This document shows, in pieces, positions 59,218 through 59,537 of a stretch of DNA of 64,000 nt. The position numbers and the translations under genes are program-made. The DNA is from Escherichia coli (GTDB lineage: Bacteria > Pseudomonadota > Gammaproteobacteria > Enterobacterales > Enterobacteriaceae). The stretch lies in assembly GCF_050920415.1 (NCBI RefSeq), contig NZ_CP169309.1; one strand, written 5' to 3'. A model generated the notes under the pieces. The model did not search any database. It worked only from the letters and a program-made list of their open reading frames with translations, and was not told where the DNA came from. How positions within the stretch are numbered: position 1 is the first letter of the stretch; every line of letters starts with the position of its first letter.

Positions 59218-59537
59218 ATCTCACCTCTACAGTGTGTCCATGAGCATCCTTTCTAATAGATTGTTTAATATTGGATTATTAACGCCTTCTTTTTCACTGT
59301 GTCCATGAGAAGGCAGATTTGAGCGTTTTTTATACCTTTTTTTGTGTCCATTTGATGTGATTTTTAGCTCAAAAAATAAACAATGGCACACGGGGGATTT
59401 AAAGATGGGCACAATTCAGGACACAAAAATCGCGGATGAACCCGCACGACTATGGACGAGTATGGAAAGTAAAAACCCGCATTAACAGGCAGTTAATGCG
59501 GGTTAGTGAACGTTCACGGACGAGGATGGACTAAAAC

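Follow-up and report, generated by a model that had tools for sequence, protein, structure and literature searches.

The 64,000 nucleotides of Escherichia coli DNA analysed here (the window, 100% identical to E. coli strain MFDS1022581) carry an island of roughly 6.9 kb (about 52617-59537) which, with a probability of about 0.8, owes its insertion at the mnmE 3' end to a tyrosine integrase of the heterobivalent type that uses the 9-mer ATGGRCACA as the arm-type element of its N-terminal domain. The repeated TGTGTCCAT/ATGGGCACA motif is real, and judged from its sequence and its arrangement it most likely represents the accessory (arm-type) sites of this P4-family integrase. The element itself is already known from Salmonella, its insertion hotspot is known as well, and in E. 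coli it is rare; the finding is to this extent largely ordinary.

The local gene order is tnaB, tnaA, tnaC, about 6.9 kb of foreign DNA, mnmE and yidC. Both flanks match 5424 of 5426 complete E. coli genomes; the whole island is found in a single one of the 5426, the source genome, and related arms are present in three others. In two empty sites (L002 and the K-12-like L003) the mnmE stop is followed by 9-12 nt, the native terminator and tnaC, the sequence on the mnmE coding strand being ...TCCAGCTTCTGTATYGGTAAGTAA CCGCGCTTA CGAAGCCGC..., then terminator and tnaC. In the window the mnmE stop and the native terminator are 6.9 kb apart, and this distance includes both members of a 25-bp direct repeat that the first-pass annotation had regarded as the att cores. 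Directly after the stop follow GTTTTAGTCCATCC..., a different terminator, the right 25-mer, three copies of TGTGTCCAT and int. From the comparison with the two empty sites, and with int lying directly downstream in every relative, the ends of the island were located as follows.

59538..59555, minus strand: actual att core on the proximal side, formed by the final 18 bp of mnmE (TTCTGTATTGGTAAGTAA) and identical to attB of the SGI1 type
59474..59504, minus strand: island-borne terminator hairpin which now terminates mnmE, kept in relatives and absent from the empty sites
52615..52636, minus strand: distal joint, where the island carries a segment resembling mnmE (CGATTTTCCAGCTTCTGTATCG, read on the int strand) with only the first 10 nt of the 18-bp core, followed directly by the original mnmE terminator of the host

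The last 18 bp of mnmE (thdF/trmE) have been defined experimentally as attB of SGI1 (PMC2297512), the same mnmE 3' end serves as attB of MGIVchHai6 (PMC4958241), and thdF is also where the int2-retron element of Salmonella Typhimurium is known to reside (PMC2972765, PMC2297512). This known protein-gene target explains the lack of a nearby tRNA or tmRNA gene, which had been noted correctly as there is none in the 64 kb according to ARAGORN. The assignment of the 25-bp repeats as att cores, on the other hand, had to be given up. Non-E. coli DNA continues past the left 25-mer for about 55 bp and past the right one for 108 bp, and because foreign DNA extends beyond each of them both are part of the insert, with the true crossover region in the last 18 bp of mnmE. 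The empty sites contain nothing that matches the 25-mer within 3 mismatches, so that empty sites with a single repeat copy do not exist among them, an outcome which the first-pass annotation itself had taken to imply that the repeats are not att sites. A 33-nt probe around the 25-mer hit two of the 5426 E. coli genomes, both of them island carriers. If the island is delimited by the 25-bp repeats its left end is misplaced by about 70 bp and its right end by about 110 bp, and the island-borne last mnmE codons and terminator are missed. In RM9088 (L024, 11559-11600) mnmE ends with ATCGGCAAATAA, the sole case among 5424 E. coli genomes, and this end is also found in the near-identical island of Citrobacter sedlakii (L012); therefore it is the island that provides the final mnmE codons and the terminator now used.

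As an observation apart from the island, tnaC and mnmE of E. coli GPEC1337 (L023, 780-3410) are separated by a 2.5-kb segment that contains a type III effector gene of the ShET2/EspL2 family. This segment, found in some E. coli, has no integrase, replaces the usual intergenic sequence and is unrelated to the island; the ShET2-type site was used as the empty-site reference for RM9088 only.

The three copies of TGTGTCCAT reported at 59233, 59298 and 59343 are present at exactly these positions on the plus strand and nowhere else in the 64 kb, all of them in a stretch of 120 nt that lies between the int start (59217) and the right 25-mer. For the window 0.58 copies are expected, and three or more copies anywhere occurred in 2 of 100 shuffles. 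The 25-bp direct repeat also exists (52685-52709 and 59405-59429, ATGGGCACATTCAAGGACACAAAAA vs ATGGGCACAATTCAGGACACAAAAA; chance expectation for such a pair 0, repeat family D8), albeit with 22 of 25 identical positions in an ungapped alignment and not as a perfect repeat. The inverted motif within it had been given as GGACACAAA at 52700-52708 and 59421-59429. This string is actually located at 52699-52707 and 59419-59427 and shares only the 7 nt GGACACA with the reverse complement of TGTGTCCAT, a different 9-mer reading ATGGACACA. What had been missed is ATGGGCACA at the start of each 25-mer, one mismatch away from ATGGACACA. Each 25-mer thus consists of tandem 9-mers of the ATGGRCACA type, 12 nt apart, with a weaker second copy (CAGGACACA or AAGGACACA), and the differences between the two 25-mers fall into the spacer between their 9-mers. 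Each island arm has one such tandem pair and the three TGTGTCCAT copies are the same 9-mer in inverted orientation beside the int start. ATGGRCACA has five exact matches in the 64 kb, all in the two island ends, compared to 1.07 expected, and this number was reached in none of 100 shuffles. As the bare 7-mer GGRCACA shows no enrichment across the window (14 found, 13.7 expected), the signal lies in the 9-mer and its clustering. The resulting map is given below, with distances counted from the int ATG and columns referring to alignment A1, which covers the spacer between mnmE stop and int ATG in the relatives described further below.

59233..59241, minus strand: candidate arm-type site f, exact ATGGACACA on the int strand, 22 nt 5' of the int ATG and adjoining the ribosome-binding site of int
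59298..59306, minus strand: candidate arm-type site e, ATGGACACA at -87, columns 253-261 with a mean identity of 0.88
59343..59351, minus strand: candidate arm-type site d, ATGGACACA at -132, columns 207-215
59383..59390, plus strand: degenerate site c, ATGGCACA, one base short, columns 166-174
59405..59425, plus strand: tandem pair b + a, with b (ATGGGCACA) at 59405-59413 and a (CAGGACACA) at 59417-59425, 12 nt start to start
52685..52705, plus strand: tandem pair b' + a', with b' (ATGGGCACA) at 52685-52693 and a' (AAGGACACA) at 52697-52705

Altogether six motif copies are found on the int-proximal arm and two on the distal arm, and the core TTCTGTATYGGNAARTAA is unrelated to them in sequence. 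The pair b + a makes up the right 25-bp repeat, lies inside the island 108 bp from the mnmE stop and is the best-conserved block of the proximal arm, site b having a mean identity of 0.97. Its counterpart b' + a', the left 25-bp repeat on the int-distal arm, has the same 12-nt period and the same orientation and is located inside the island about 55 bp from the distal joint; the equal distance was found in six related loci (L004, L012, L013, L024, L099, L100) and in 9 metagenome loci. Weak points of the sites in the window are site a, which lacks the AT of the 9-mer, and site c, which is short by one base. In the Brenneria, Sodalis and Dickeya relatives site c reads TGTG(T/C)CCAT, and it is intact in L007, L008, L010, L011 and L108. 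A further GGACACA heptamer (GACAGGACACATA, 53170-53182, minus strand) belongs to the P4-like immunity region, several hundred bp inward from the distal end; it is kept in four related islands (that of the window, L004, L012 and L013) and was excluded from the arm-site count.

The gene next to these sites is an integrase pseudogene.

57998..59217, minus strand: integrase pseudogene (int2 orthologue) with a 1-nt frameshift near 58910, the repaired protein having 406 aa

The frameshift results from the loss of one A from an AAA codon where homologues read TFAKRWL. The repaired Int has the Pfam domains Arm-DNA-bind_3 (PF13356, residues 3-88, E 1.2e-24), Phage_int_M (PF22022) and Phage_integrase (PF00589) and also matches NCBIfam PRK09692. 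It is 97-98% identical to Salmonella enterica integrases and shows 29% identity to P4 Int over 420 aligned positions (BLASTP, E 5e-61). Broken int copies are also present in Klebsiella indica (L009), Superficieibacter (L005) and Pseudocitrobacter (L013), and int decay is thus common in relatives. In the window int is frameshifted and only 10 of 18 nt of the distal core are left, so the copy does not qualify as a mobile element and its recombination system is dead. The int of RM9088 is intact and its distal core is truncated as well.

In order to compare the arms across genera, relatives were collected by a peptide-pattern scan of species-representative genomes. Close relatives with 80-98% identity were found in Chimaeribacter, Superficieibacter, Kluyvera, Brenneria, Acerihabitans, Klebsiella indica, Sodalis, Citrobacter sedlakii and Pseudocitrobacter, and further copies in Salmonella houtenae, Salmonella Typhimurium, Dickeya and three more E. 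coli strains. Altogether the relatives come from more than 12 genera, and wherever upstream sequence is present int is located immediately 3' of the mnmE stop. The same holds for Thauera and Thiohalobacter, in which int has only 57-60% identity and is likewise directly downstream of mnmE. Alignment A1 shows six conserved blocks at about -208, -196, -173, -132, -87 and -22 from the ATG, separated by spacers that diverge; blocks 1-3 correspond to TGTGYCC(AT) and blocks 4-6 to ATGGRCACA. Site f is found at -21/-22 in 11 of the 15 enterobacterial relatives scanned. In a six-lineage subset the motif columns have a mean identity of 0.855 vs 0.647 in the rest of the arm (Mann-Whitney p 5e-9, indicative only because alignment columns are not independent). 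The Thauera spacer has 7 copies of TGTGCCCAC vs 2.0 expected, that of Thiohalobacter six TGTTCCCAT-like copies, and in both the first two motif copies are 12 nt apart. A metagenome scan with GTTAGCYCGATTTTCCA gave 73 loci, from which 9 are true distal arms and the rest chance matches; neither a circular attP nor a complete distal core was among the 73.

The variable base of the motif follows the N-domain of the integrase. It is A throughout in Brenneria 4F2, Sodalis and Dickeya, G throughout in E. coli PSS-15, all or mostly G in Acerihabitans, Brenneria salicis and an Enterobacterales MAG, and mixed in the group to which the window belongs. Integrases with GLVIEV in the N-domain go along with ATGGACACA (A) sites and those with GL(M/F)IEI with ATGGGCACA (G) sites, in two separate sub-lineages. 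For Dickeya, A-type sites had been predicted from GLVIEV and were confirmed afterwards. For the covarying residues, a structural role rather than contact with the bases is also conceivable. The interpretation of the repeats as arm-type integrase sites, already put forward in the first-pass annotation, fits well with their conserved positions, the covariation with the Arm-DNA-bind_3 domain and a layout that mirrors the arm repeats of P4. The comparative set probably amounts to the arm-site code (ATGGRCACA and lineage variants) of a widespread mnmE-specific P4-like integrase clade, and the covariation between N-domain and motif base could guide the engineering of specificity.

According to the model we propose, the Arm-DNA-bind_3 N-domain would recognise the 9-mers, namely d, e and f at int, the pair and the degenerate copy further outward and the pair on the distal arm. 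The degenerate third copy c has the opposite orientation to d, e and f. The target of the C-terminal catalytic domain would be a different sequence, the core located within TTCTGTATYGGNAARTAA at the mnmE end, and the island itself would re-supply the last mnmE codons and the terminator. By analogy to lambda, P4 and KplE1, Int molecules bridging arm and core would build the recombination complex. Copies beside the int start could in addition allow Int to repress its own gene; both the binding of the 9-mers by Int and this autoregulation we infer from the sequence. In KplE1 the int promoter overlaps arm sites and is auto-repressed, with a study on P4 Int/Vis among the references (PMC2951348), which is the basis for suggesting that sites d-f might also regulate int. 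This regulatory role is drawn by analogy only, since no sigma-70 consensus promoter was found in a scan of 59150-59600 and no match to the IHF consensus WATCAANNNNTTR in either arm. The standard model is also incomplete for the observed data, because the distal junction is without the half-site needed by a canonical attR.

Other explanations for the repeats were weighed against the arm-type reading. Binding of the 9-mers by a different island protein, such as a directionality factor of the AlpA/Vis type or a repressor of int, appears improbable even though more distant relatives encode AlpA beside int and sites of directionality factors also cluster between core and int, where they can overlap the int promoter (PMC2951348). 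Among the small ORFs of the island the NCBIfam and PHROGs scans revealed no excisionase, AlpA or Vis, and no AlpA or Vis was called in the minimal int-retron island of Salmonella Typhimurium, in which the proximal-arm copies are already partly decayed. Furthermore, the motif is present on both arms, resembles the P4 arm repeats and covaries with the Int N-domain.

We regard it as very improbable that the repeats are replication iterons of a P4-like replicon that came to lie near att by chance. The crr repeats of P4 are indeed situated directly beside attP and the island has remnants of a primase-helicase, but the type-1 repeats of the P4 ori (TGTTCACC/GGTGAACA) are unrelated to ATGGRCACA, the motif arrays also occur in islands without a called primase (Salmonella Typhimurium L100 and, within its 10 kb, Thiohalobacter L107), and they are always located between mnmE and int. 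Hardly tenable is the proposal that the 25-bp repeats are attL/attR cores derived from a 25-bp attB in the tnaC-mnmE intergenic region with the inverted GGACACA as core-type site. The 25-mers are direct, far above chance and near both ends of the foreign DNA, as would be expected for such cores; this is outweighed by their absence from empty sites and from all E. coli genomes except two island carriers, by the foreign DNA outside both repeats, by the three differences between them (22/25) in the spacer between the 9-mers, and by relatives in other genera having the same pairs within flanks otherwise unrelated to the host. Chance or low-complexity repetition without function, for which one could only quote the chance frequency of the 7-mer GGRCACA in the window, is practically negligible in view of the clustering, the 9-mer enrichment, the positional conservation across genera and the parallel arrays in Thauera and Thiohalobacter.

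The arm-type reading gains from the comparison with characterised P4-family att sites, which had been suggested as a check and in which phage P4 showed the same layout and a related motif. The P4 record annotates 12-nt "attP arm sequence repeats" (TGGGGGCAYA) as a contiguous pair on each side of a 20-bp core, and an inverted copy of the arm repeat lies over the int start. Common to P4 and the island are the integrase with Arm-DNA-bind_3, central and catalytic domains, the pair with 12-nt period on each side, the inverted copies at int, GGGCACA as shared part of TGGGGGCAYA and ATGGGCACA, and C4 RNA and primase-helicase, which are remnants in the island. In contrast to P4 with its core in tRNA-Leu, the island targets the 3' end of the protein gene mnmE, has more int-proximal copies (three) and the whole site set flipped relative to int; its distal junction is truncated and sid, delta and psu are absent.

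Essentially the same element is the int2-retron St85 (retron-Sen2) of Salmonella Typhimurium (L100), with an Int of 97-98% identity, the order mnmE-int-STM3845 effector-RT, the same retron families and msr, and the same distal arm pair and truncated distal joint. The Salmonella copy differs by mutations in sites b, c and d and by a 65-nt deletion through which e and f have become fused, whereas the E. coli arm is better preserved; its int is full length, unlike the frameshifted int of the window, and only the E. coli copy retains the P4-like immunity and replication remnants. SGI1 has the last 18 bp of mnmE as its target too, with int adjacent and the island restoring the gene end (PMC2297512, PMC4958241). 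At each of its ends SGI1 has a complete 18-bp repeat (PMC2297512, PMC3285670), whereas the distal core copy of the island described here comprises only 10-12 nt, its cargo is different, no xis-like gene was detected by NCBIfam and PHROGs and no mobilization genes were seen. To lambda and KplE1 (IntS) the likeness would be in the inferred mechanism, an N-domain binding arm-type sites distinct from the core, and for KplE1 also in an int that abuts attL with an auto-repressed promoter overlapping arm sites (PMC2951348); the arm motifs are unrelated and the integrase subfamilies differ.

A combination of both island types was seen in Pseudenterobacter timonensis (L022, about 9700-10222). There, a right end similar to SGI1/MGIVchHai6, including the published primer sequence 43_attPF, abuts a full 18-bp core, which is followed by a remnant of the proximal arm and int of the island described here. 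This nesting corresponds to SGI1 beside int2 in Salmonella Typhimurium DT104.

A canonical attP x attB exchange should leave the host's GNAARTAA and the DNA downstream of it at the distal joint. The distal joint of the window, however, consists of TTCTGTATCG followed by the terminator DNA of the host, and GNAARTAA of the host is absent in all 16 distal junctions analysed (13 distinct host joints), which are from E. coli, Salmonella, Citrobacter, Chimaeribacter, Pseudocitrobacter and metagenomes (L004, L012, L013, L024, L099, L100, L034-L084). They keep 10-12 nt of the 18-bp core, and the host mnmE end plus 9-30 nt are gone. All junctions end at TTCTGYATYG, sometimes with an additional G or GT, and the left edge is thus fixed. 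The right edge varies even within one host type, as for L069 vs L045/L084 or Salmonella Typhimurium vs Salmonella houtenae. Compared to the K-12-type empty site the window is without 19 nt (TGGTAAGTAACCGCGCTTA), and RM9088 is without 29 nt relative to the ShET2-type background. A BLAST search with the own mnmE end found no distal copy in L005, L007, L008 and L011, and the distal junctions of Dickeya and Thiohalobacter, which lie beyond the 10-kb flanks, are outside the 16.

For SGI1 a 7-bp overlap has been proposed, and its right edge is roughly where the fixed left edge falls; a fixed left together with a variable right edge suggests a deletion begun by integrase cleavage at the overlap/B' boundary. 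An example for such a route would be an abortive excision repaired by short-homology end joining. The distal junction might then be systematically "locked", with an integrase-started deletion, the sole intact mnmE 3' end being island-borne and excision damaging mnmE, a tentative idea from the junction sequences that we consider rather unlikely. As an alternative, the truncated junctions may reflect a sampling bias toward copies that can no longer be excised. The 3' end of mnmE encodes the C-terminal CIGK motif. Were the idea of a locked junction true, excision would damage mnmE and lead to a target-gene addiction that fixes defence islands, and a truncated junction made by the integrase would be a simple mechanism for their irreversible capture.

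Between the two arms the island carries a retron and, towards the distal end, what is left of a satellite.

55775..57906, minus strand: retron module of the St85/Sen2 type (NCBIfam STM3845_fam and retron_St85_RT, both above cut-off)
57837-57906, minus strand: retron msr (Rfam msr)
57710-57834, minus strand: retron msd, with a 29-nt perfect inverted repeat (I1) at 57766-57827 (Rfam STnc400)
56710-57672, minus strand: retron effector, STM3845-type (NCBIfam)
55775-56710, minus strand: retron RT (NCBIfam)
52923..55172, unstranded: P4-like satellite remnant (Rfam, RefSeq annotation, PHROGs primase/helicase matches)
52923-53143: P4-type immunity RNAs c4-a1b1 and C4 antisense RNA (Rfam)
55042-55172: EFASI RNA beside the primase-helicase pseudogene (Rfam)
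53649-54161 and 54198-54701 (helicase), 54705-55106 (toprim): primase-helicase pseudogene in three ORF pieces, the helicase part being split by an internal stop

In the literature the St85/Sen2-family retron is regarded as a toxin/antitoxin system with three components (bioRxiv 10.1101/2020.06.22.160168). With these pieces and a fragment of ash the island is a stripped, decayed P4-like satellite. As a group, the mnmE-specific P4-like islands carry defence cargo including retron St85, restriction-modification systems and others. Related mnmE islands with a different cargo are present in E. coli PSS-15 (L025, 11140-20000) and in L024 (1823-3915), where either a different reverse transcriptase accompanied by a phosphoribosyltransferase-like gene or a set of the ATPase/AAA/HNH type was found. 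The start of tnaA has been lost in PSS-15 to a deletion from the island side.
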